Source: an uncultured Alphaproteobacteria bacterium (GTDB taxonomy: Bacteria > Pseudomonadota > Alphaproteobacteria > HIMB59 > GCA-002718135). Taken from it: DNA of 64,000 bases. The stretch lies in the NCBI GenBank assembly GCA_902614375.1, contig CACMKZ010000002.1:14477-78476 (forward strand), written 5' to 3'. The position numbers were made by a program, and so were the translations under genes. The notes under the pieces are model-generated. The model saw only the letters and a program-made list of their open reading frames with translations. It was not told where the DNA came from and did no database searches. Below are positions 33,833 through 45,692 of this stretch, one piece after another; position 1 is the stretch's first letter, and the number at the start of each line of letters is the position of its first letter.

Positions 33833-34903
33833 ATGAAGAATAATCAAATTATTTTAGGTGATTCTATTAAGGAAATGAAAAAATTAAAAGATCATTCGGT
33901 TGATCTTATTTTTGCTGATCCACCCTATAATCTTCAATTAAAGGATACATTATACAGACCTGATCAAACAACGGTGGAAGCAGTTACACAAGATTGGGAT
34001 AAATTTAGTACGTATATAGAATATGATCAATTTACTAATGCTTGGCTTAGTGAATGTAAACGTATTTTAAAAAAAGGTGGGGCACTTTGGGTGATAGGAA
34101 GTTATCATAATATTTTACGTGTAGGTTCTACAATCCAAGATGAAGGCTTATGGATCTTAAATGATATTATTTGGCATAAAACAAACCCTATGCCAAACTT
34201 TCGTGGTACACGTTTCACAAATGCGCATGAAACACTGTTATGGTGCACAACATCAAGAGAAGCAAAATACACATTCAACTATCAAAATCTCAAAGAACTA
34301 AATGAAGGAAAACAAATGCGAAGTGACTGGTATATTCCTATTTGTTCAGGTAAAGAAAGACTGCGAAAAAATAATAATCAGCGATCGCATCCAACACAAA
34401 AACCAGAAGCGCTCCTTTATCGAATTCTACTAGCATCGACAAACAAAGGTGACCTTGTTCTTGATCCATTTTCAGGCAGTGGAACAACTGCGGTTGTTGC
34501 AAAAAAATTACAACGTAACTTTATTGGTATAGAAAAAGATGAGGACTACGTTAAACTATCAAAAGAACGATTAAAGAAAACTAAAGTATTGAAAGAAGAA
34601 GTTGTAACTATTGCAAAGAGCAGAAGAGAGTTACCAAAAGTTCCTTTTGGTGAATTAGTCGAGCAAGGAATTATTCCACCTGGTGCTGTATTAACTGATA
34701 AAAAAGAACGCTTTAAAGCAACGGTTAGTATTGATGGAACACTTAAAATAAAAGATTTAACAGGTTCTATTCATCAAATGGGAGCAAAGATACAAGGACT
34801 ACCAAGTTGTAATGGATGGGATTTTTGGCATGTAAAAGATAAATCTAAATCAATCCTTCTAGATGAAATACGATCTAATTACCGTAGAGATAAACTAAAT
34901 TAA
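33833..34903 (+). CDS. ccrM: CcrM-type N6-adenine DNA methyltransferase (GANTC-specific family)
   Basis: 356 aa, collinear with Caulobacter CcrM. Shared blocks: [75 protein letters not shown]-terminal GSIH..GA......NGW.FWH. Confidence 0.93.
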
Positions 34904-35448
34904 TAATCTTTTATTCTTCCAACGACATTAAGATTTCGATCAGCTATTAATATTTCACCGGAAGTTACTGCCTGACCAAAGATAGCAGCGATTACTACGT
35001 AGTGTGTGACGAATACTATATTACCTTCATTTTCTAAATTATTTATAAAATTAATTAATTTCTCAAGTTGTGGCTCTTTATTTTTGTAAAATTTAGGATC
35101 ATAAAACGAATTAAGAGCATCAAATGTTTCAAATTTTTGGAATGCTAGATTTGCTGTTTCTTTACAACGACACCATTCACTAGATAAAACTAAATCTATA
35201 GAGATATTGTTTGTATCAAAAAATTTACCTAATTCGATAGATTGCTCTTTACCTACACTATTAAGATTCCGCTGAGTAGAACAATCAAAAATATCAAAAT
35301 TATCAGGATCTCCATTACCAGGAGCTAGAGCATGTCGAATAAATATTAATTTATTGTTTTGTTTTAATACCTTTACATAATCTGAATTAGCATTAGTTGA
35401 TAAAGAATAAATAAAAGTCAGTACAATAATAATTAATTTCTTAATCAA
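34900..35448 (-). CDS. Histidine phosphatase superfamily protein with signal peptide
   Basis: 182 aa. Hydrophobic N-terminus ([16 protein letters not shown]), catalytic [14 protein letters not shown]...CSTQRNL and distal VTHYVV. Its stop overlaps the convergent ccrM stop in TTAA. Confidence 0.8.
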
Positions 35449-36760
35449 TTATAATTCTAGGTTCGAAAGGGTGTAGTTTTTCTAGGCGTTCAACTGCCCA
35501 AAGATTATCTTCAGTAACTTGATTCAAAGAATACATGCCCTCTACATCACCATTAATATCAAAGTCTAATGATCCTGACACACCTTCATAATTAATTTCG
35601 ACACCTCGAACAAGTAAAGCACGAGCAGCTTCCCAACTTCCCGGTCCCATTTTAATTCCTGGTGGATTTGCAACACTAACTAAACTTTTCGATAAATCTT
35701 CCTTTGCAATATTATTGTGTGCCTGATGCTGTAGTGCCAAAGCTGCTAGCATCATAGTGTCAAAACTTATAGCTGAGTAGGGAGAATTGGGATCAACGCC
35801 TGCATTCAACATAATATTTGCGTAAGTTTGAAATTCTTCTGAACTTTGTGAAGTTGCTTGGGCAACAATAGTTGTATTTTCGTTTAATTGAATTGGAATA
35901 TACGAATAAATTAAATCTTTAACTTCATTGGTTAACATACTATCAGAACCATAATGATGTTTAAAAATTCCTGAGGTTCCTAATTCTTGTAATCTGCTTA
36001 AAACAGTATTGGTAAACTGTTCAAGTAAATTGACTGTTCTCTCATTTCCATGAAGAAACATAACTAAACCTGGTTGATCATTCTCTATGGCAATATCAAC
36101 AAATGTATTGATGAAGTTTTGATTGATAACTGTTTTGTCTGTCAGTAAAGTATTAAATAACACTATACCTTCTTGCTCAGTGTAAACTTTTAAAAAATTT
36201 TGAGCCAGTGTAGAATTATAATTATCATCACCGTAAAGAAGAATTATTTCTCTGATATTCTTGGATAGAAGATAATTGGCAATAGAGGTTGATTGCTGAA
36301 TATCAGAAGGAATGGTTCTAAAAAATAGATCATTATCTTCAATTGTTGAAAGTAAAGGGTAACTTGCAGAAGAAGAGATCGTTAATATTTTTTCTGGAAT
36401 AGTAACTTTCTCTATTACTCTAACAGCACTTGTTGAGCACGTCGGTCCTAAAAGAATTTCAGGGTCATTTTTTTTTAAATAGTCATTTAAACTATCTTCT
36501 GTTTTTCTAGGATCACATCCTGAATCAATGCTATCAATAGAGATGAGGCCTCTTCCTACAATACCAATACCATCCGCATTAATTGTTTCTACAGCAACTC
36601 TTTTTGCTTCTGCAATTGACTCAGCAATTTCACTCACTGGGCCACTTTCTGCATAAAGGGCAGCAATTTTCACTTCTGCACTCACAAAAGTTGAGTAAAA
36701 TAATATGATCTTGAGGATAATTATCGTAAAAATTTTCATTATGTGAGATGTTTTTATCAT
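35441..36760 (-). CDS. Type-I periplasmic binding protein (Leu/Ile/Val-binding / ANF-receptor family), orphan
   Basis: 439 aa. Signal peptide (..FYSTFVSA-EV), KIAALY..SGP, GPTCSTS and LFFRTIPSD blocks of the Peripla_BP_6/ANF_receptor fold. No cognate permease or ATPase nearby. Confidence 0.75.
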   Translation of the reverse strand: MIKTSHIMKIFTIIILKIILFYSTFVSAEVKIAALYAESGPVSEIAESIAEAKRVAVETINADGIGIVGRGLISIDSIDSGCDPRKTEDSLNDYLKKNDPEILLGPTCSTSAVRVIEKVTIPEKILTISSSASYPLLSTIEDNDLFFRTIPSDIQQSTSIANYLLSKNIREIILLYGDDNYNSTLAQNFLKVYTEQEGIVLFNTLLTDKTVINQNFINTFVDIAIENDQPGLVMFLHGNERTVNLLEQFTNTVLSRLQELGTSGIFKHHYGSDSMLTNEVKDLIYSYIPIQLNENTTIVAQATSQSSEEFQTYANIMLNAGVDPNSPYSAISFDTMMLAALALQHQAHNNIAKEDLSKSLVSVANPPGIKMGPGSWEAARALLVRGVEINYEGVSGSLDFDINGDVEGMYSLNQVTEDNLWAVERLEKLHPFEPRIIID

Positions 36761-36766
36761 AAATTT

Positions 36767-38449
36767 TTAGAATGAAAATGTGGTATTAAGTAAATACACA
36801 GGTCTAGAAGTAGTTCCCTCAATACTTTTATCAGCTTCTGCTACTTCAAAACTAATATCAAGGCTGTTAGAATTAAGAGGAATTTTAATTTTAACACCGT
36901 ACCCTCCACTTGCTACTTCTGTTCGGCTGAACTCACCTGATGCTGGTCGTTTATAGTAGGTAGCACCAACACCGAGATGGATGTAAGGTTCAATACGTAT
37001 AGACTCTTCCCTTTTATCTTCGTCATCTTCTGAAAAAGGATACAAGGGCCTACTCAATTCTGTTCGCAAAAACAAGCCTTGATCACCAGACATATTACCT
37101 GATTCAAAACCAGACATTTGTCCTGGTCCTGTTATATTTATTTGTTCTGAATTGATTAAACCTCTATCGCTAACAAGTTTTTGAAAAACAAAACGTGTAT
37201 TCAATAAATACTCTCTAAATATTTGCCTATTCAAATTAATATCACTATTCCATTTTATAAAATTTAACGTGGAACCAACACGGGATAATGTTTTTGTATC
37301 AGCTGTTTTGTTTGTATAGATGGGAGTGCCAAACTTTAAAACTGAACTACCTTTAAGCGAGAAAGAATCTAAGAAAGATAAGTTAGTGGTTGTATATTTT
37401 AACTCTAGAGCATTGTATTCATCATAAAAGGTATCATTTGTGAGGAAAGATAATGTTCGATGTTCTCTTTCCTTAATCCATTGCCAATCTAATGAAAGGT
37501 TATTTTTTATGAGCCGCGTATTTTTTATTTGATATTCAAGACCAAGGTTAATTTTTTTAAATTCCCCTTTTTTATTTAAACCTTTAGGTTCTGAATAAGA
37601 TTCATTAACAGCACCAAAAATAGAAAAGTCTGAGGCAAGAAGTGGTACTTTACCACCAACAAGATATGCTTCTCGAAAATCTGTTCGTTTAATAATTTCT
37701 GTTTCATCAATTGGAACATTAACACCATTTTCAGGATCTAAGACGTAGGCTGCATAAAGATTTTCACCATAACCAAAAGGGCTATTAAAACTTAGGTAAG
37801 AGGTGAACTGATCTTTTCCTGCTGTTTCTGATAATCCATTTGAATAGGTAAAATAACCACTTACTAATTCGTGTTCAGCATTTAGTTGTAGTGAAGATGT
37901 TCCAGGTTCTTCTCCTGCCTTAATTGTTGTTTCTAAATCAACACCTGGTAATTCTCGTGATTTAATGATTGATTTTTCAATAGCAGGATATTCTAACCCT
38001 TTAATACCAACGAGTTTATCGAAATATTTCTTTATTGGTTTTGAAATACGTTTATCTAATTGTGAGTAATCAATTGATTCAATTTTACCAGGAAAAACAA
38101 TAGCTTTTATTTTAGTATTTTGTTCAATCGTTTGAGGTGGAACAATAAAACGCGTTAAAAAATATCCATTTAAAACGTACAATTGCTCTAATGCAATCAG
38201 TAAATTATAAAAATCTTTTAATGTTATTGTTTTAAAAATTTTTGAGCTAAATAAATTTTTACGAAACTCAATCATGTCTTCGATTTCATTTTCAATTTCA
38301 ATTCCAACAAAATTAAATGAAATATTTTCTGCTCCAGGTGGTACGACCAAACCTGTTTCATAAACAATATAATTACCAGTATTTGTCAAACCAGGATATG
38401 ACATGAATGAAATAGAAATAAAAAAGATAAAAGATAAAAAATATCGCAT
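36767..38449 (-). CDS. TpsB outer-membrane transporter (ShlB/FhaC/HecB family, Omp85 superfamily)
   Basis: 560 aa. Signal peptide, POTRA-like N-region (..FPGKIESIDY.., ..ELPGVDLETTIKAGEEPGTSSLQL..), then a long beta-strand-rich C-domain ending in the aromatic OMP signature ...LLNTTFSF. Directly follows tpsA. Confidence 0.85.
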   Translation of the reverse strand: MRYFLSFIFFISISFMSYPGLTNTGNYIVYETGLVVPPGAENISFNFVGIEIENEIEDMIEFRKNLFSSKIFKTITLKDFYNLLIALEQLYVLNGYFLTRFIVPPQTIEQNTKIKAIVFPGKIESIDYSQLDKRISKPIKKYFDKLVGIKGLEYPAIEKSIIKSRELPGVDLETTIKAGEEPGTSSLQLNAEHELVSGYFTYSNGLSETAGKDQFTSYLSFNSPFGYGENLYAAYVLDPENGVNVPIDETEIIKRTDFREAYLVGGKVPLLASDFSIFGAVNESYSEPKGLNKKGEFKKINLGLEYQIKNTRLIKNNLSLDWQWIKEREHRTLSFLTNDTFYDEYNALELKYTTTNLSFLDSFSLKGSSVLKFGTPIYTNKTADTKTLSRVGSTLNFIKWNSDINLNRQIFREYLLNTRFVFQKLVSDRGLINSEQINITGPGQMSGFESGNMSGDQGLFLRTELSRPLYPFSEDDEDKREESIRIEPYIHLGVGATYYKRPASGEFSRTEVASGGYGVKIKIPLNSNSLDISFEVAEADKSIEGTTSRPVYLLNTTFSF

Positions 38450-41400
38450 TTATAGTCTTTGAATACTAAGCGCGTCTACCTGAGGAAAAGATGTAATAAA
38501 TTCATTTTGTATTAGTGCTGCATTAGATGCACCATCAACAGATATAAAAGACACAATTCGAGATACGTCATCGAAAACATCTTTATTTATTTTTTCTTGA
38601 ACAACAATTTTTTCTTTTTCTTCATCTGGTGCTACTCCTGGAAGTGGCGGAGTTTTAGAACCACTAAGAATGTTAGCAAGTTGAACCGTTTCTAAAGGTC
38701 CATTTGAATCTTCAATTGTAATACTACCTGAAGTAAACCCTGAGAGTTGATAATTGATTGGAACCTCTTTATTATTTTCAACATCTGCTGTTAAAAAACT
38801 ACCAGAGGAATTTAAAGAAAGATCAGTACCTGTTAAATTTAAACCTGATATTGTTCCTCCACTAACTGTAGCTGATGTAGTTCCATCATATGTCTTATCG
38901 TCAGCGCTAGCCCCTGATATTGAAAAATTATCTGAAATTAGAGTACCTGTGGTAGCAGTGACATTAGATAGATTTATATTTCCCATACTAGCATTGGTTA
39001 ATGTACCGCCATCTAAAAGTTTTATAGTTAAATCATCTGCTGTTAAGCTTGCAGAACTAGCAACAACATCTCCTACTCCAGCATCTCTATCACTATCAGA
39101 AACATTGTTAGTATTTGTGTCACTTGCAATAATTTCTAGATCTGCTGCTGTATTGATATTGCTGTTAATATTAACATCCCTTCCGGCATGAAGATTTAAA
39201 TTTCCAGTTCCTGTAACAGTAATAGCAGAACTAATGGTAATATCTGTATTTGCTTGAAGGGTAACTTCAACGCCGTTATTTAAAAATTCCTCTAATTCTG
39301 TTATGTTGATAACCACATCATCACTTGCAAAATCTGTGTAAGATGTTGCCCCTTGCATGATTGTATCAGACCATAAATATACTGCTCCCGCATCTGTTCC
39401 ATCAACGTCATCATTACCAAGTCCATCATCCCTAGTTGCTCCTACAGCCATTAATGTTCCTGTATCATCCATAGCTATACTGTTTGGAAATTCATCAGCA
39501 TCTTCTAGTCCGTGAGTCGTAGCATTAAGCGTATTACTACCAGTTTGACCAAGTCCTATAGTAAATTGTAAACTTGCTCCATTTAAAGATGTATCCTGAA
39601 AACCAAATACATGTACATCATCCGTATCATGGTGACCAATTGCTAGTCGATTTCCATCACCATCAATAGCTACCTGACCTGCCTTAAAACCAGAAATTCC
39701 TGATGTATCGTAATCTTTTCCACCATTACCCTCATATTTATTTCCTATAGATGCAACATAGTCAGGAGTGCTAAAATTATCACCAAAGGTGAAAAGGTGC
39801 ACTGCACCTGTATCAGTATAATTGCCATCAAAACCATCATCTTTATGCGTTCCAACAGCTAAAATTTTACCATCCTTTGTTAATGCAATATGACTAGCAA
39901 AATTGTCATTATTATCTAAAATTGCACTTATATTTTCATTATTATTTCCTGTATAACCAGATCCTATTGTGCCGACATGATTAGGATTATCAAAATCGGT
40001 ATTACTAAATCTAATTAAATGAACTGCACCTGCATTTGTTGCGGTATCATCATATCCATCATCTCTTTGAGCGCCAACAACAAGACCTGATCCATCATCA
40101 GTTAAAGCCACTGAGGTAAATAAATCACCGTCATCTAAAGTACTTATTGATAGATTGTGTTCGTTATCTGAGGGATAACTTCTTCCAATTGTACCGACAT
40201 GTTCAGGAGTACTAAAATTATCACCAAATGTTACTAAATAGACAGATCCTGTTTCTACTGCTCCTGTAGTAGTTTTATATCCTGAAAAAGCTAATCTGTC
40301 ACCGTCTCCATCTAAAGCTACTCGCCATGCTCTTTCATTATTTGCTAGAGAATTTATATCTAAATTGTTGGACCCTGTATAACCTTTTCCAATTTTTCCT
40401 TTAAATTCTGGGGTAGAAAAATTTGTATCAGCAAATGTAAATAAATATACTGCTCCAGTATTTGTTTGGAGGTCGTCACTTCCATCATCATAAGTTGATG
40501 TTACAGCCATTCTATCTCCATCACGATCGAGAGATATACCTCTACCAAATTGGTCATTACTATCTAGTTGATCATCAATATCTAAATTACTAGCACCATA
40601 TCCACTACCAACGATTCCATAAATTTCACCACTGCTGAAAGCATCATCATCAAATTTAATAAGCATCACTTCACCACTTTTAGATTGTGTATTACTATTT
40701 CCGCTTGCAAGCATACCTGAAATTACAAGACGACTGCCCGTTTCATTCAAATCTACACCATCTCCAAAAAGATCTTTAGCATCCATATACGCACTTAAAT
40801 CAACATTTTTACCACCACTATACCCATCACCTATTGTTGCTACATAAGATGCTGATGCTAAATTATCAGTTAAATTATATAAATGTACACCACCAGGCTT
40901 GGTAGTACCACCCTCAGATAACTTGTCGTTAAAGCTAACAGCTAAACGATTAGCATCTTTATCAAACGCCACTGATTTACCTAAAACATCTTGTGATCCA
41001 AGTGTTTCTGTGTGTTCACTATCATCACTCGTATCTAGATAATCGTAACCATACCCAATTGTTCCAACATAAGTAGCTGTTCCCGTTTCAGCAGAAACAA
41101 CACTACCGTCTTTCATAAATTTAAATAAATTAACTGCTCCCGCATTTGTTGCATTATTACCTTTACCATCATCAAATATCCTTGATGCTGCAAGTAAAGA
41201 TCCTTCATGATTTAACGTTACACTCCAACCAAGACGATCTCTTCTGTTTAACTTTAAATCGGTTTCACTTTCTGTATCAAAATCCTGTGAAAATGATGCA
41301 CAAGTGCTATTTGCATAACAATCAGAACCTGTATTATATGTATAGCCATGACCAATTCGAGATTTAACTTCACCACCTTTAAAATCTGAATTTAAGGAAA

Positions 41401-43690
41401 TCATAAAAACTGAACCAGAGTCATCTCTTTCTGACCCTCCCTCCGAATAACCATGGTCACCATAACTACCGACTGCCAAAACATCAGCATCACCATCTAG
41501 AGCTACACTTACTCCAAATAAATCAGATACCTCAATAACAGGAGCATTATTATCTCCCTGACTCAATAAATTTATATCGTTAGAACCAGTATAACCAGCA
41601 CCTATTGTGCCTACGTGTTCACCACCTGCGTATGATGTATCACTAAAAGTAATTAAATAAACTGCACCTGCATTTTTATAATCACCATCATAACCATCAT
41701 CACCCGTTGCTCCAATTGCTAGTCGTTTTCCTGTGCTATCAAAAGATACAGATCGTCCAAATTTATCATCTTTACCTATAGTGCTGATATTTATATTAAG
41801 ACCTCCGGTATATCCTTTTCCTATACGACCCATGAGTGTAGCATTTGTAAAATCGCCATCATCAAATTTATACAAATATACTTCTCCAGATGATGATGAT
41901 TGATTTGAAGATCCTTTACCGTGCCTTGCTCCAACTACCATTAAAGTAGCATCATCACTAATGCTAACATCTGATCCAAAATTATCATCTATTTCTAGAT
42001 TTCCTTCATTTAGATTTCCATCTAGTAATGTATCTACGTAATCGTGTCCAATCAAACCACGATAGATCCAATTCTGTGATGTTACGCCTGTTCCTACAGT
42101 TATATTTTTTGGATCAAGTAATAAATGACCACCGTCTGATATATTGACATTTGATAAGCCCACATGACGTAAGGTATCTTTAGAAGAAATTTCAACCGCA
42201 CCACCTATTGTTCCTGTTGCAAGAATATTTCCAAGCATGGTTGTTTCTTGATCACTCCAAATAATAGCGGTACCGGCTTTTCCATTTGAGGATGAAATAT
42301 CAATCCTAGAACCGTCCGAGACTAAAACTGTTTTTGCATTTGTGAGCGATCGTCTTTCACCCCATCTATCAACAAAAACATTTTGTTGTTCTGCAGTTCT
42401 TGTTAAATTATTATTGCCTTGAAACTCTCCACCAATACGAACTAAACCACCTTGGGTATTGCCTGCAACATCAATCTTAGAAGATAATAATCGAATATAC
42501 CCCTCTGATTCTAAGTCAATGTATCCACCTTGTTGATTACCTTTTGCGGAAACTGAACCAGAAGACATAATATTTGGTGCGGATAAAAGAATATCACCAC
42601 CATTGGTATTTCCTGATGAATTAATTTCACTGCCGTAACTTTGAACAATTTTATACTCAGATTTAATATTTATATCACCGCCATCATTACTAGTAGAAGA
42701 AGCATTTAAATTGCCTCCCAAAGAAATTTCTCCAGAACTATTTAAATTTATTGCGCCTGCATTTGTTCCAGATACATCAACTTCTCCTCCAAAAGATAAA
42801 AAGTCTCCTTCAACATTAATGTTGCCACCCTCTTTTGCCGTTAAGTTTCCTGCAACAACAATGTCACTTCCACTACCAAGAGTAATGACACCGTTTTGTT
42901 GTGAAGCCGTAGTTGCAACAAGATTACCGGGAATGTTAACAGCACGCTGAACAACATTTTTGGCAGCACCAACATCAATGTCTATTCTATTTGCCGTTGA
43001 TGTTCCTGCATGATTGATTATGGTATTTAATTCTTCTGCATTTTGATCGAGTAATGTTATCGCTTCACTAAATGGAATGCTTACTTGTAAAAATTTATCA
43101 CCACTCAAGTCTAACGTAATTTCTTTTCCAGCCCCTATGCCAATTTTACCAAGATTAGCATTAATCGTACCTTCATTATTAATAGCGCCACCTAAGAGAG
43201 CAGTAAAACCTCCATCCAAAGTAGTAATTGAACCTTTATGAATAATAGAAGAAAAAATATTATTTACATTATCTGCTTTAAATAAAAATCTATTATTGAG
43301 AAAATCATCATTGGATAAAGCCAGCGTGGAGGCAGCAAAGGAATGCGCATTGATTGTCGACGTGGGTGTAAAGTAAACGCCGTTTTCATTCACCACAAAA
43401 ACTTTACCATTGGCATTTAGTACACCAGCAAGCGTTGTTGGATTTCCAGAGACAACTCTATTTAAAGCACTTGCATTAACAGAAGGTTGATTAAAAGTAA
43501 CTGTATTATTTTCTCCAATGTTAAAACTATTCCATTCTATGATAGCTTGGTCTGATTGCTGTTGAATTGTCAGCGTCTGATCATCAGTAGTAAGTGAAAC
43601 ATCACCTGATATCGTTGTACTTCCACTCGGTAATTCAGCAAATAAATGAAGTGAATAAAAAAAGAATAAAATAATTACAAATACTCTCAT
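38450..43690 (-). CDS. TpsA-type giant exoprotein: TPS secretion domain + beta-helix + about 12 FG-GAP repeats + YDG module
   Basis: 1746 aa. Signal peptide, then TPS (haemagglutination-activity) domain IIEWNSFNIGENNTVTFNQP...LNRVVSGNPTTLAGVLNANGKVFVVNENGVYF. Gly-rich helix repeats end in GGAVEISSK...GHLLLDPKNITVG. The FG-GAP array spans aa 568-1442. A KTYDGTTSATV module sits near aa 1600. Confidence 0.9.
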   Translation of the reverse strand: MRVFVIILFFFYSLHLFAELPSGSTTISGDVSLTTDDQTLTIQQQSDQAIIEWNSFNIGENNTVTFNQPSVNASALNRVVSGNPTTLAGVLNANGKVFVVNENGVYFTPTSTINAHSFAASTLALSNDDFLNNRFLFKADNVNNIFSSIIHKGSITTLDGGFTALLGGAINNEGTINANLGKIGIGAGKEITLDLSGDKFLQVSIPFSEAITLLDQNAEELNTIINHAGTSTANRIDIDVGAAKNVVQRAVNIPGNLVATTASQQNGVITLGSGSDIVVAGNLTAKEGGNINVEGDFLSFGGEVDVSGTNAGAINLNSSGEISLGGNLNASSTSNDGGDINIKSEYKIVQSYGSEINSSGNTNGGDILLSAPNIMSSGSVSAKGNQQGGYIDLESEGYIRLLSSKIDVAGNTQGGLVRIGGEFQGNNNLTRTAEQQNVFVDRWGERRSLTNAKTVLVSDGSRIDISSSNGKAGTAIIWSDQETTMLGNILATGTIGGAVEISSKDTLRHVGLSNVNISDGGHLLLDPKNITVGTGVTSQNWIYRGLIGHDYVDTLLDGNLNEGNLEIDDNFGSDVSISDDATLMVVGARHGKGSSNQSSSSGEVYLYKFDDGDFTNATLMGRIGKGYTGGLNINISTIGKDDKFGRSVSFDSTGKRLAIGATGDDGYDGDYKNAGAVYLITFSDTSYAGGEHVGTIGAGYTGSNDINLLSQGDNNAPVIEVSDLFGVSVALDGDADVLAVGSYGDHGYSEGGSERDDSGSVFMISLNSDFKGGEVKSRIGHGYTYNTGSDCYANSTCASFSQDFDTESETDLKLNRRDRLGWSVTLNHEGSLLAASRIFDDGKGNNATNAGAVNLFKFMKDGSVVSAETGTATYVGTIGYGYDYLDTSDDSEHTETLGSQDVLGKSVAFDKDANRLAVSFNDKLSEGGTTKPGGVHLYNLTDNLASASYVATIGDGYSGGKNVDLSAYMDAKDLFGDGVDLNETGSRLVISGMLASGNSNTQSKSGEVMLIKFDDDAFSSGEIYGIVGSGYGASNLDIDDQLDSNDQFGRGISLDRDGDRMAVTSTYDDGSDDLQTNTGAVYLFTFADTNFSTPEFKGKIGKGYTGSNNLDINSLANNERAWRVALDGDGDRLAFSGYKTTTGAVETGSVYLVTFGDNFSTPEHVGTIGRSYPSDNEHNLSISTLDDGDLFTSVALTDDGSGLVVGAQRDDGYDDTATNAGAVHLIRFSNTDFDNPNHVGTIGSGYTGNNNENISAILDNNDNFASHIALTKDGKILAVGTHKDDGFDGNYTDTGAVHLFTFGDNFSTPDYVASIGNKYEGNGGKDYDTSGISGFKAGQVAIDGDGNRLAIGHHDTDDVHVFGFQDTSLNGASLQFTIGLGQTGSNTLNATTHGLEDADEFPNSIAMDDTGTLMAVGATRDDGLGNDDVDGTDAGAVYLWSDTIMQGATSYTDFASDDVVINITELEEFLNNGVEVTLQANTDITISSAITVTGTGNLNLHAGRDVNINSNINTAADLEIIASDTNTNNVSDSDRDAGVGDVVASSASLTADDLTIKLLDGGTLTNASMGNINLSNVTATTGTLISDNFSISGASADDKTYDGTTSATVSGGTISGLNLTGTDLSLNSSGSFLTADVENNKEVPINYQLSGFTSGSITIEDSNGPLETVQLANILSGSKTPPLPGVAPDEEKEKIVVQEKINKDVFDDVSRIVSFISVDGASNAALIQNEFITSFPQVDALSIQRL
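39365..41989 (-). repeat. Protein-level array of about 12 FG-GAP (integrin-alpha-like) units, period about 70 aa, inside tpsA
   Basis: The recurring unit has three parts. First, (D/N)xFGxSV(A/S).D.(D/T)G.RLA(V/I)GA. Second, ..DDG....NAGAVYLFTF. Third, the linker ..(H/Y)VGTIG.GYTG.N. Examples are DDKFGRSVSFDSTGKRLAIGATGDDGYDGDYKNAGAVYLITF and NDQFGRGISLDRDGDRMAVTSTYDDGSDDLQTNTGAVYLFTF. The units are diverged, so there is no nucleotide-level tandem repeat. Confidence 0.75.
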
Positions 43691-43781
43691 AATAATGTTT
43701 ATCGCCTTTTAAAAATTTAGACCAAATTTTTGATATTATTTATATATGTTTTAAAAAAAATATAGGTATTTTCTCAGTTTT

Positions 43782-45095
43782 TTAGGTGATGCGTTGATAA
43801 ATTTTACCTAAATAAGAAAATAAAGTCAAAGCTCTGGCAATAAAGAAGATGCAGAGTGATAACCATAAGCCTGTATTACCAAAACTTGCTATTAAAAAAA
43901 AAGAAGCGACAATATAAATCACCACAGATACTATCATTGCGTTTCGCAGTTCTGTTGTTTGGGATGCACCTACAAAAATACCATCAAATTGAAAACAGAA
44001 AGAGGAAATAAAAGGAATAATAACAATCCAATATGCATAGGAAAAACAGATATCTCTAATCTCGGACAAATCAGTCATGGCAATAATAAAGTAATGATTA
44101 CCAAAGAAAAAAATAACACATATTAATAAAGCTGTAGAAGCACTTAAAATAAAAGAATTTTTAATAACGTCTTTTAATAAACGTAAATTTTTAGAGCCAA
44201 TAGAATATCCAACAATACCCTCTGTTGAAAATGCATAGGCATCAAGAATAAACGCAGATAGCATCGTTAGATTAAGCAATATTGTGTTTGCAGCAACCGT
44301 CTCCTCACTAATAGAATTGCCAAGATAGGTAAAATATAAGAAAGCAAATGTAAGAAGAATAGATCGGATAAATATATTAAAATTAATATTAAAAATATTT
44401 TTAATTTTTTTAAAGTTAAAAATCTTTTGTTTATTATATTCTAACTGAGCAAACTTATTTAAATCAAAAAAAGTATAAAATAAAAAAATAATTGTAGTCA
44501 GAGAAGAAGAGACTAAAGTACCAAGAGCAACACCCTGAACATTCAAATTTAAATATAAAACAAAAAATAAGCTAAAGAGTATATTTGTAATAGAAAAGAA
44601 ACCAATAATGATACTTGATGTTTTTGTTTTCTGTAAACCAATAAACAATCCTGTAATAACAAAAATAGTAAGCTCTCCAAATGAGGAATAAATACGAAGA
44701 TTAAAATAGTCTTTAAAATATTTTTTTGTTTCTAATGATAGTTCAAATATAGATAATGATATTTGAAATATATATCTCTGAAAAATAATAAGTAGTAAGG
44801 AAATAATAATTACAAAAGAAATATTTCGTAAAAATATATTTATAATTTCCTGATAATCTTTTGATCCATAAGCTTGAGCTACCATGCCGACCGTACCCAT
44901 GCGCAGGAAGCCAAAACTCCAGAAAATCATCGAAAAAACACTTGCTGCAATACTGGTAGCAACCAAGTAACTAGCATTATCAAGATTGCCCATTAGTCCT
45001 GTGTCAACAATAGCAACTAAAGGAATAGCTAAGTTTGCAAAAAATATTGGAATAGAAAGTTTAATTATATTTTTGATAGAAGATTTAAAGGACAT
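43782..45095 (-). CDS. MATE-family efflux transporter
   Basis: 437 aa, about 12 TM spans. The N-terminal IPIFFANLAIPLVAIVDTGLMGNL block is typical of MATE (NorM/DinF) proteins. Confidence 0.8.
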   Translation of the reverse strand: MSFKSSIKNIIKLSIPIFFANLAIPLVAIVDTGLMGNLDNASYLVATSIAASVFSMIFWSFGFLRMGTVGMVAQAYGSKDYQEIINIFLRNISFVIIISLLLIIFQRYIFQISLSIFELSLETKKYFKDYFNLRIYSSFGELTIFVITGLFIGLQKTKTSSIIIGFFSITNILFSLFFVLYLNLNVQGVALGTLVSSSLTTIIFLFYTFFDLNKFAQLEYNKQKIFNFKKIKNIFNINFNIFIRSILLTFAFLYFTYLGNSISEETVAANTILLNLTMLSAFILDAYAFSTEGIVGYSIGSKNLRLLKDVIKNSFILSASTALLICVIFFFGNHYFIIAMTDLSEIRDICFSYAYWIVIIPFISSFCFQFDGIFVGASQTTELRNAMIVSVVIYIVASFFLIASFGNTGLWLSLCIFFIARALTLFSYLGKIYQRIT

Positions 45096-45212: not shown

Positions 45213-45692
45213 ATGAAAATTGGCAGATACAAATACGAGTTTGATTTCTTTAGTTGGATCAAAAAAACCGAGCTAGTAGAACTCGATGGTGTTAATCCAT
45301 CTGATGATCCGGTACGACCAGAACTTGATAATGAATTTCGAACTTCTAAAGGAAGAAAAATTTTTGGCCTTAAATATAAGGATGATATTGAGGGTATTGC
45401 CTGCTTTGCCTTTACAAATGAAATACCAGCAACCATTAAAGAAATGGATTTGATGAGTGTTGAAGAAGATCAAGCAACCATTCCAATCGCCTATACGTTA
45501 TGGTCTTTTAAAAAAGGGGCTGGGAAAAAAATTATGAAAGAATTACAAAAATATATCAAATCAAAAGAGCAGTTTGAAAGCATCATTACCATTTCGCCTT
45601 TAACTCCTGTTGCTACCCACTATCATATTCGAAATGGTGCAAGATTAATTAAGATTAACCCTACAACACAGAACTTCGAATATAAAATTTAA
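45213..45692 (+). CDS. Hypothetical protein (possible GNAT-fold acetyltransferase)
   Basis: 159 aa and the longest ORF in this gap. The weak motif-A-like WSFKKGAGKKIMKEL is the only support for a GNAT call. Confidence 0.4.
   Translation: MKIGRYKYEFDFFSWIKKTELVELDGVNPSDDPVRPELDNEFRTSKGRKIFGLKYKDDIEGIACFAFTNEIPATIKEMDLMSVEEDQATIPIAYTLWSFKKGAGKKIMKELQKYIKSKEQFESIITISPLTPVATHYHIRNGARLIKINPTTQNFEYKI

Follow-up and report, generated by a model that had tools for sequence, protein, structure and literature searches.

A third, conserved gene for a periplasmic binding protein in a two-partner secretion cassette of SAR11 bacteria

In the present work we analysed a stretch of 64,000 nucleotides (hereafter the window) from an uncultured alphaproteobacterium (assembly GCA_902614375.1, contig CACMKZ010000002.1, positions 14,477 to 78,476), in which four genes follow one another on the minus strand: tpsA (38450..43690; an exoprotein of 1746 amino acids), tpsB (36767..38449; an Omp85-type transporter of 560 amino acids with POTRA domain and ShlB/FhaC barrel), the gene of a periplasmic type I binding protein (PBP) with the LivJ/ANF-receptor fold (35441..36760; 439 amino acids), and a TTG-started gene for a secreted, PRK06193-like member of the histidine phosphatase family (34900..35448; 182 amino acids). 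While a preliminary description of this DNA had combined all four into one envelope module, we conclude with considerable confidence that the conserved unit is tpsA-tpsB-PBP and that the phosphatase does not belong to it. This rests on the strict linkage of PBP and TpsB across genomic contexts, on a clade boundary that both proteins share, and on outgroups that lack the pairing. The cassette is smaller than had been proposed (three genes, not four), yet better supported. Through it, a ligand-binding component would enter a secretion pathway that is thought to lack one.

Relatives of the PBP were collected by a word-indexed search, which returned 62 clusters, all at 52% identity or more except two at 25%, and an exhaustive search with HMMER through 1.84 billion representatives placed the next full-length relatives at 25-33% identity. 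The corresponding loci (labelled L below) were gathered by exact look-up, from 185,579 species-representative genomes and from metagenomes; the genes of the window were mapped on all of them by tblastn, and adjacency was scored where the upstream DNA extended over 300 nt or more. In each of the 59 assessable loci with an in-clade PBP (52-100% identity), tpsB was located directly upstream of it. Two loci (L049, L075), whose tblastn matches were split or N-terminally truncated, had been flagged as non-adjacent by the automated filter and proved adjacent by their coordinates. The weak matches P0061 and P0062, tandem PBPs of 25% identity with no two-partner secretion (TPS) genes nearby, were assigned to the outside of the clade. 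A tpsA gene encoding a TPS domain and FG-GAP repeats precedes tpsB wherever the contig extends far enough. Besides, the clades of TpsB and PBP are co-extensive, as both end at ∼52-54% identity, to be followed only by sequences of 23-33%. For TpsB, 79 clusters at 54% identity or above are succeeded by a fall to 23%, and the nearest outgroup TpsBs come from plain two-gene tpsB-tpsA loci without a PBP.

The linkage is also kept in a deep sub-clade, in which the PBP is 52-59%, TpsB 54-57% and TpsA ∼50-54% identical to the proteins of the window. We observed the cassette in several surroundings, namely beside ccrM, the left flank being mutY-like (L066, L068), just after a tRNA-Gln gene in a polysaccharide-gene region (L007 1422-1496; L008 50-124), and before ThuA/GFO genes (L011). 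Its intact presence beside tRNA-Gln in a deep lineage implies that tpsA-tpsB-PBP moved as a unit. At the two tRNA-Gln loci, inspection by eye also revealed an ORF (open reading frame) resembling a glycosyltransferase beyond the tRNA gene and a short sulfotransferase-like ORF just downstream of the cassette. As for its distribution, a minority of the SAR11/Pelagibacteraceae lineages possess the cassette, which is confined to this one family. Of the module originally proposed, the tie between the PBP and the TPS pair has thus been borne out, while the phosphatase turned out to be a variable neighbour; likewise, TpsB and PBP were always found together when the co-occurrence of the TpsB-PBP-phosphatase trio was checked, and it was the phosphatase that was missing from part of the genomes.

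For the phosphatase, we relied on a species-level set of 31 single-cell or metagenome-assembled genomes (MAGs) with a PBP of at least 83% identity. Of the 29 that could be assessed, 17 had the gene intact, one (L028) kept a remnant of it (amino acids 11-66 only), and 11 lacked it. Three genomes without it (L022, L023, L024) encode a PBP that is 100% identical to that of the window, and none of the deep-clade loci contains it. In the alignment, its absence takes the form of a clean 541-bp indel, bounded by ...GATTAA and ...GATTATTAA, which in the window corresponds to positions 34900..35440: it begins with the base that follows the PBP stop and extends through the end of the phosphatase stop codon. 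The indel keeps both stop codons exactly, and without the segment the stops of PBP and ccrM overlap (∼11317-11322 in L022/L023).

Conversely, the phosphatase occurs without the cassette. In the Pelagibacteraceae MAG L015, which has no tpsA, tpsB or PBP, a phosphatase of 70% identity follows a MatE-family gene after 9 nt, in the same neighbourhood as in the window (IMPDH, orf159 and MatE on one side; ccrM, RNase HII, MoCF and SLT on the other). The window has the cassette precisely between MatE and the phosphatase. The same gene therefore stands at the same locus next to ccrM in a genome devoid of tpsAB, which speaks against its membership in the module. At another locus (L016 5736-8561), a homologue of 59% identity closes, with an overlap, an unrelated amino-acid ABC operon consisting of SBP_bac_3 and two permeases. 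Together, its positions after MatE, in the ABC operon and after the PBP identify it as a habitual operon-tail gene behind envelope or transport genes. The family as a whole comprises more than 7,900 homologous clusters and is thus far wider than the cassette.

The history of the phosphatase gene differs from that of its neighbours as well. Relative to L030/L039, synonymous divergence (dS) is 0.12-0.19 for the phosphatase, 0.54-0.60 for the PBP and 0.31-0.38 for TpsB, and such an abrupt change between adjacent genes argues for separate recombination histories, with breakpoints at or near the gene junctions. Where present, the phosphatase is under purifying selection, with a ratio of nonsynonymous to synonymous substitution rates (dN/dS) of 0.085-0.17, and it is regarded as a functional gene. 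The protein matches His_Phos_1 (PF00300; 30.7 bits, cut-off 21.7) and contains the motifs IRHALAPG (RH with the catalytic His) and VTHYVV (the second His), in agreement with the RH...H catalytic pattern noted previously; a sequence search against the Protein Data Bank (PDB) yielded no match at E ≤ 0.01. The suggestion that an organophosphate bound by the propeller protein is captured and then dephosphorylated found no support. In the window, the phosphatase is probably co-transcribed with the cassette. As judged from these sequence comparisons, however, it is a dispensable neighbour that has been lost repeatedly and takes no part in the mechanism of the cassette, and its case illustrates that tight gene overlap in a compact genome is no proof of functional membership.

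The PBP itself matches the Pfam families ANF_receptor (E 2.8e-27) and Peripla_BP_6 (E 1.4e-16). In NCBIfam, it scores 63.4 bits with PRK15404 against a cut-off of 477, and 20-27 bits with the urea-binding models against one of ∼493 bits. NCBI labels it generically as an "ABC transporter substrate-binding protein" and places the in-clade PBP MDC3005574.1 under Pelagibacteraceae. An AlphaFold2 model built from a 108-sequence alignment reached a pLDDT of 93.6 and a pTM of 0.89 (an earlier one from 11 sequences, with a pLDDT of 53.6, was discarded). In Foldseek, its best matches were LivJ/LivK structures (4gnr, 1z15, 2lbp; E 5e-20 to 4e-19), to which the sequence is merely 17-19% identical, followed by the flytrap domains of GABA-B, mGluR and NPR receptors.

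To locate the ligand pocket, the contacts of LivJ were transferred onto the PBP by aligning E. coli LivJ/LivK, that is, from the alignment and not from a ligand complex; the roles of these residues are those in the LivJ structures. Six ligand contacts are invariant in the clade, with LivJ S79, A101, T102, Y150, E226 and F276 corresponding to S109, A132, S133, Y181, D273 and Y328 of the PBP, and so is the counterpart of the C53-C78 disulfide of LivJ (C82-C108). Two positions have changed: the lid aromatic Y18 of LivJ is I45, and Y202 is H237 (Y in two members). From the contacts that are kept and the exchanges at Y18 and Y202, it follows that the pocket for the α-amino acid backbone is intact, while the side-chain cavity is altered.

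The PBP is ∼60-90 residues longer than LivJ/LivK-type binding proteins. Compared with 97 outgroups, it has a clade-specific helix insertion (amino acids 250-260), and it carries a likewise clade-specific C-terminal tail of 18-22 residues that ends in P-x-I-x-I-D, whereas the tail has a median length of 9 residues in the outgroups and counts 4 residues in LivJ. With a dN/dS of 0.04-0.055, as compared to 0.09-0.155 for TpsB, the PBP gene is under the strongest constraint in the cassette. No LivH/LivM-type permease gene was found in the 64-kb window, in agreement with the preliminary description, which had regarded the PBP as an orphan, nor within 10 kb at any of the ∼60 TPS-linked loci. Distant PBPs (L055, L078, L086) do have permeases adjacent, and L093, the only nearest outgroup for which context was retrieved, belongs to a livF-livG-livH-livM-PBP operon. 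By its sequence relationships, then, the PBP is a descendant of LivJ-type ABC binding proteins that has left the transporter context, and its tail and helix insertion suggest a new protein partner. Among the nearest PBP outgroups (P0270, P0263, P0267, P0274, P0277) there is a caspase (Peptidase_C14)-PBP fusion as well as tandem double PBPs and a PBP-PBP-YceI arrangement, which are further non-transporter uses of this subfamily.

On the secretion side, all features readable from sequence identify TpsA and TpsB as a two-partner (type Vb) secretion pair, for which export is predicted. TpsB matches ShlB (PF03865; E 6.5e-17, 62.4 bits, cut-off 22.7) and, at the border, POTRA_2 (24.0 bits, exactly on the cut-off of 24). 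TpsA matches the TPS domain (PF05860; E 1.6e-23, 84.4 bits, cut-off 33.5), TIGR01901 (E 5e-19), FG-GAP_2 (E 9e-32) and YDG (E 3e-7). When orthologues were compared in blocks of 50 residues, the TPS secretion domain and β-helix (amino acids ∼20-550) proved conserved, while amino acids ∼551-1450 (39341-42040 in the window), which comprise about 10-13 propeller repeats of the FG-GAP type (about 10 by a count of the G-A-V-Y-L-F-type blade motifs), were hypervariable. In this centre, identity amounts to 48-75% per block, even between genomes whose PBPs are 100% identical (L019-L048). The C-terminal region, which includes the YDG domain, is conserved again. Its final ∼70 residues (...EEKEKIVVQEKINKDVFDDVSRIVSFISVDGASNAALIQ...VDALSIQRL) form the best-conserved stretch of the protein: they hardly vary within the main clade, their conservation is still clear in the deep clade, and the extreme C-terminus is kept even at 50% overall identity. 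Searches of the C-terminal 297 amino acids against Pfam and PDB returned YDG and designed β-helix proteins only, and left the last 70 residues unmatched.

The variable middle of TpsA is as expected of a surface-exposed binding or adhesion protein, and the block profile suggests diversifying selection or recombination acting on a surface-exposed repeat region. Family scans recognised no hydrolase or ligand-releasing domain in TpsA. We excluded a toxin of contact-dependent growth inhibition (CDI; CdiBAI type), since orthologues have VGND, VGDN or VGSD in place of the VENN tetrapeptide at amino acid 1637, conservation extends to the C-terminus, and the gene directly following tpsA is tpsB, not an immunity gene. 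In many related genomes, a second and shorter TPS-domain gene (TpsA', at least 1241 amino acids) is located directly upstream of tpsA (L014 1-2954; L018 1-1662; the first ∼3 kb of L029-L039, L044, L045 and L048), in the place that MatE holds in the window. One TpsB may thus serve two exoproteins, TpsA and TpsA'.

How might the three proteins work together? We read the PBP as a dedicated ligand-binding accessory of the type Vb system, which would act by gating secretion or by relaying uptake. Taken as a whole, the best explanation is a type Vb cassette of three genes in which the PBP acts on the secretion system and the phosphatase is a bystander, a reading towards which we lean without granting it quite an even chance. 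TpsB would export the ∼1750-residue TpsA, while the PBP would sense a small molecule in the periplasm, probably an amino acid or a close analogue. The tail of the PBP might contact either TpsB, at its POTRA domains, or TpsA, at its conserved C-terminus; FhaB and CdiA are cases in which the C-terminal part remains in the periplasm during export. Such contact could tune the export, retention or release of TpsA, and the cassette would have come to lie in front of a resident phosphatase "tail" gene. The sensing and gating steps in particular are offered tentatively, as they may well turn out otherwise. That the PBP is a small-molecule-gated switch operating through its clade-specific tail, by which SAR11 bacteria would display or release TpsA upon an amino-acid-like cue, is a still more speculative version that we consider possible, albeit unlikely.

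Several points weigh against an action of the PBP on secretion. An intact amino-acid pocket is equally expected of a transport binding protein. Permeases of the HAAT family accept several binding proteins, and the search for a permease covered the window and 10 kb per locus, which leaves room for a distant LivHMGF set elsewhere in the genome. Besides, the linkage, strict as it is, is seen in one bacterial family and might in part stem from the inheritance of a single island, not from functional dependence.

The leading alternative, which we regard as a serious, if rather unlikely, one, is an uptake relay: the PBP could be an orphan binding protein for a LivHMGF-type importer encoded elsewhere, for which TpsA on the cell surface captures or liberates an amino-acid-like solute, and the genes would travel together since the PBP is useful only with the exoprotein. 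The fully conserved LivJ-type pocket residues and the LivJ-like fold are compatible with such a relay, as is the ABC operon around the nearest relative with known context (L093); SAR11 bacteria also invest heavily in binding proteins, several of which can share one HAAT permease. A precedent for nutrient capture by a three-gene TPS system exists in HxuCBA (PMC5422565). On the other hand, the neighbourhoods of the ∼60 loci hold no permease or ATPase partner within 10 kb, the conserved tail and helix insertion, which transporter-linked relatives lack, suggest a new protein partner instead, and TpsA is devoid of any recognisable domain that could hydrolyse or release a ligand.

We consider it improbable that the PBP fold escorts TpsA independently of a ligand, as a periplasmic chaperone that keeps the ∼1750-residue protein unfolded and targets it to TpsB, comparable to the general chaperones for FHA. 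Strict linkage and tight gene spacing would fit such a role, and so would the clade-specific tail, the higher conservation of the PBP relative to its variable partner TpsA, and the conserved termini of TpsA, which could be binding sites. However, a pure chaperone has no need for the invariant small-ligand constellation of S109, A132, S133, Y181, D273 and Y328, and the TPS chaperones reviewed in PMC5422565 include no type I binding protein. Less credence still is due to the notion that the PBP is a mere passenger of a mobile TPS island, linked to it by descent and not by function. In favour of this, the cassette is confined to one family, and its locus is prone to recombination, with small genes shuffled and a second paralogue of tpsA present, yet the linkage survives down to 52% identity, in at least three contexts and under heavy recombination that removes or swaps the neighbours; the PBP is the most constrained of the three genes, and the streamlined genomes of SAR11 bacteria readily shed DNA that they can spare, of which the phosphatase indel is an example. 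Least probable by far is the four-gene module in which the phosphatase would share a role with the TPS pair and the PBP, for the 8-nt overlap with the PBP gene, the same junction in 17 species-level genomes and purifying selection on the phosphatase are outweighed by its losses (also next to an identical PBP), its absence from the deep clade, the clean indel, its occurrence without the cassette in L015 and L016, the breadth of its family and a dS sharply unlike that of the adjacent PBP.

Among known systems, the "additions to the core" of TPS loci listed in a review comprise CdiI, BcpO, CdiC, the glycosyltransferases HMW1C/HMW2C, HxuC and proteases encoded outside the operon, and no binding protein (PMC5422565). 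The closest in layout are HMW1A-HMW1B-HMW1C of Haemophilus influenzae and EtpBAC of enterotoxigenic E. coli, where a TPS pair is likewise joined in an operon by one dedicated accessory gene; HMW1 even has the same A-B-C gene order, and its accessory protein modulates the exoprotein (PMC5422565). However, HMW1C and EtpC are cytoplasmic glycosyltransferases, whereas the third protein of the present cassette is a periplasmic type I PBP with a small-ligand pocket. HxuA-HxuB-HxuC, the haem-hemopexin system of H. influenzae, also ties a TPS pair genetically to a component of nutrient uptake (PMC5422565), yet HxuC is a TonB-dependent transporter of the outer membrane and HxuA binds a host protein, while the cassette of a free-living oligotroph has a PBP and no transporter gene nearby. 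In the CDI locus BcpAIOB of Burkholderia, a type Vb system again includes an extra small envelope protein, BcpO, which is needed for TpsA to function. BcpO, a predicted periplasmic lipoprotein in some species, is unrelated to binding proteins, and the SAR11 cassette has neither a conserved VENN motif nor a polymorphic C-terminal toxin or immunity gene.

With LivJ/LivK of the HAAT family, the PBP has in common the fold (Foldseek E ∼5e-20), the disulfide and the contacts to the α-amino acid, but it differs in scoring far below the equivalog cut-offs, in having no adjacent permease or ATPase gene and in lying always downstream of tpsB. Finally, there are systems in which a flytrap protein reports its ligand to another machine, such as GlnH-GlnX-PknG of mycobacteria or the flytraps of BvgS, GABA-B and mGluR, and PMC6069109 supplies precedent for binding proteins as sensors outside transport. 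Here, in contrast, the PBP comes without a gene for a kinase, transducer or membrane sensor, and TpsB or TpsA would be a hypothetical receiver. None of the four proteins matched a known anti-phage defence system in PADLOC. Within the reach of full-text searches, we found no account in the literature of two-partner secretion in SAR11 or of binding proteins linked to TpsB.

TPS is regarded as a minimal pathway of two proteins, with immunity proteins, glycosyl- or acyltransferases, BcpO and a TonB-dependent receptor as its known additions, to which a dedicated periplasmic ligand-binding protein would add a new kind of partner, implying either a small-molecule input to secretion or a new nutrient relay from the surface to the periplasm. 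If the gating reading holds true, this would be the first ligand-controlled TPS system and, for a lineage poor in regulators, a rare device for sensing at the post-transcriptional level. SAR11 bacteria are described in an abstract as the most abundant marine bacteria. That a cassette of ∼8.3 kb is kept in their extremely streamlined genomes suggests an ecologically important function at the cell surface, with adhesion, nutrient capture and interactions with phages and grazers as candidates.

As to the layout of the locus, the list of ORFs and our reading of the sequence agree with the coordinates and spacing originally given for the four genes. The tpsB gene starts directly after the tpsA stop (0 nt), the first ATG of the PBP gene comes 6 nt behind the tpsB stop, and the PBP stop overlaps the TTG start of the phosphatase gene by 8 nt. 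A second ATG of the PBP gene, 21 nt further in at position 36739, widens the gap to tpsB to 27 nt and is the start called in many or most of the database relatives (432 amino acids). N-terminal hydrophobic leaders were recognised by eye on all four products, as the signal sequences previously assigned to them would require. Just upstream of tpsA, positions 43691..43829 (minus strand) comprise a gap of 91 nt, which parts the tpsA start from the MatE stop, and a candidate promoter for the cassette. The promoter-like site, TTGACT-17-TAAAAT at 43829-43801, falls within MatE, at its 3' end, and is a consensus match only; in the consensus scan, promoter-like sites did not exceed the counts in shuffled sequence, which makes this evidence neither way. 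A terminator scan revealed no convincing candidate between the four genes, and a few weak terminator-like matches inside tpsA.

In the lineage of the window, the left flank of the cassette is formed by the MatE-family gene (43782..45095, minus strand), and the right one by a convergent gene for a ccrM-type N6-adenine methyltransferase (33833..34903, plus strand), which is common to this lineage and the deep clade. The window has a G+C content of ∼30%, and the genes flanking the cassette are 70-90% identical to those of L015; together with the family under which MDC3005574.1 is placed, this identifies the organism as an alphaproteobacterium of the SAR11 type. Gene packing is extreme, in that convergent stops share bases: those of phosphatase and ccrM overlap by 4 nt in the window (34900-34903), and where the phosphatase is absent, those of PBP and ccrM overlap. 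An ORF of 159 amino acids (45213-45692, plus strand) is 91-100% conserved in all related genomes and L015, and its L015 orthologue has no Pfam family among the precomputed matches. Another ORF, of 145 amino acids and antisense within tpsA (38754-39191, plus strand), can most likely be dismissed as a spurious frame within coding DNA rich in repeats. In some genomes, a secreted ORF of 138-143 amino acids, often together with a rhodanese of 122-125 amino acids, is found between the PBP or phosphatase gene and ccrM (L018 10589-11385; L014 11400-11816), while in L040 (1655-2461) it lies upstream of tpsA. This change of sides marks the borders of the cassette as a hot spot of recombination.

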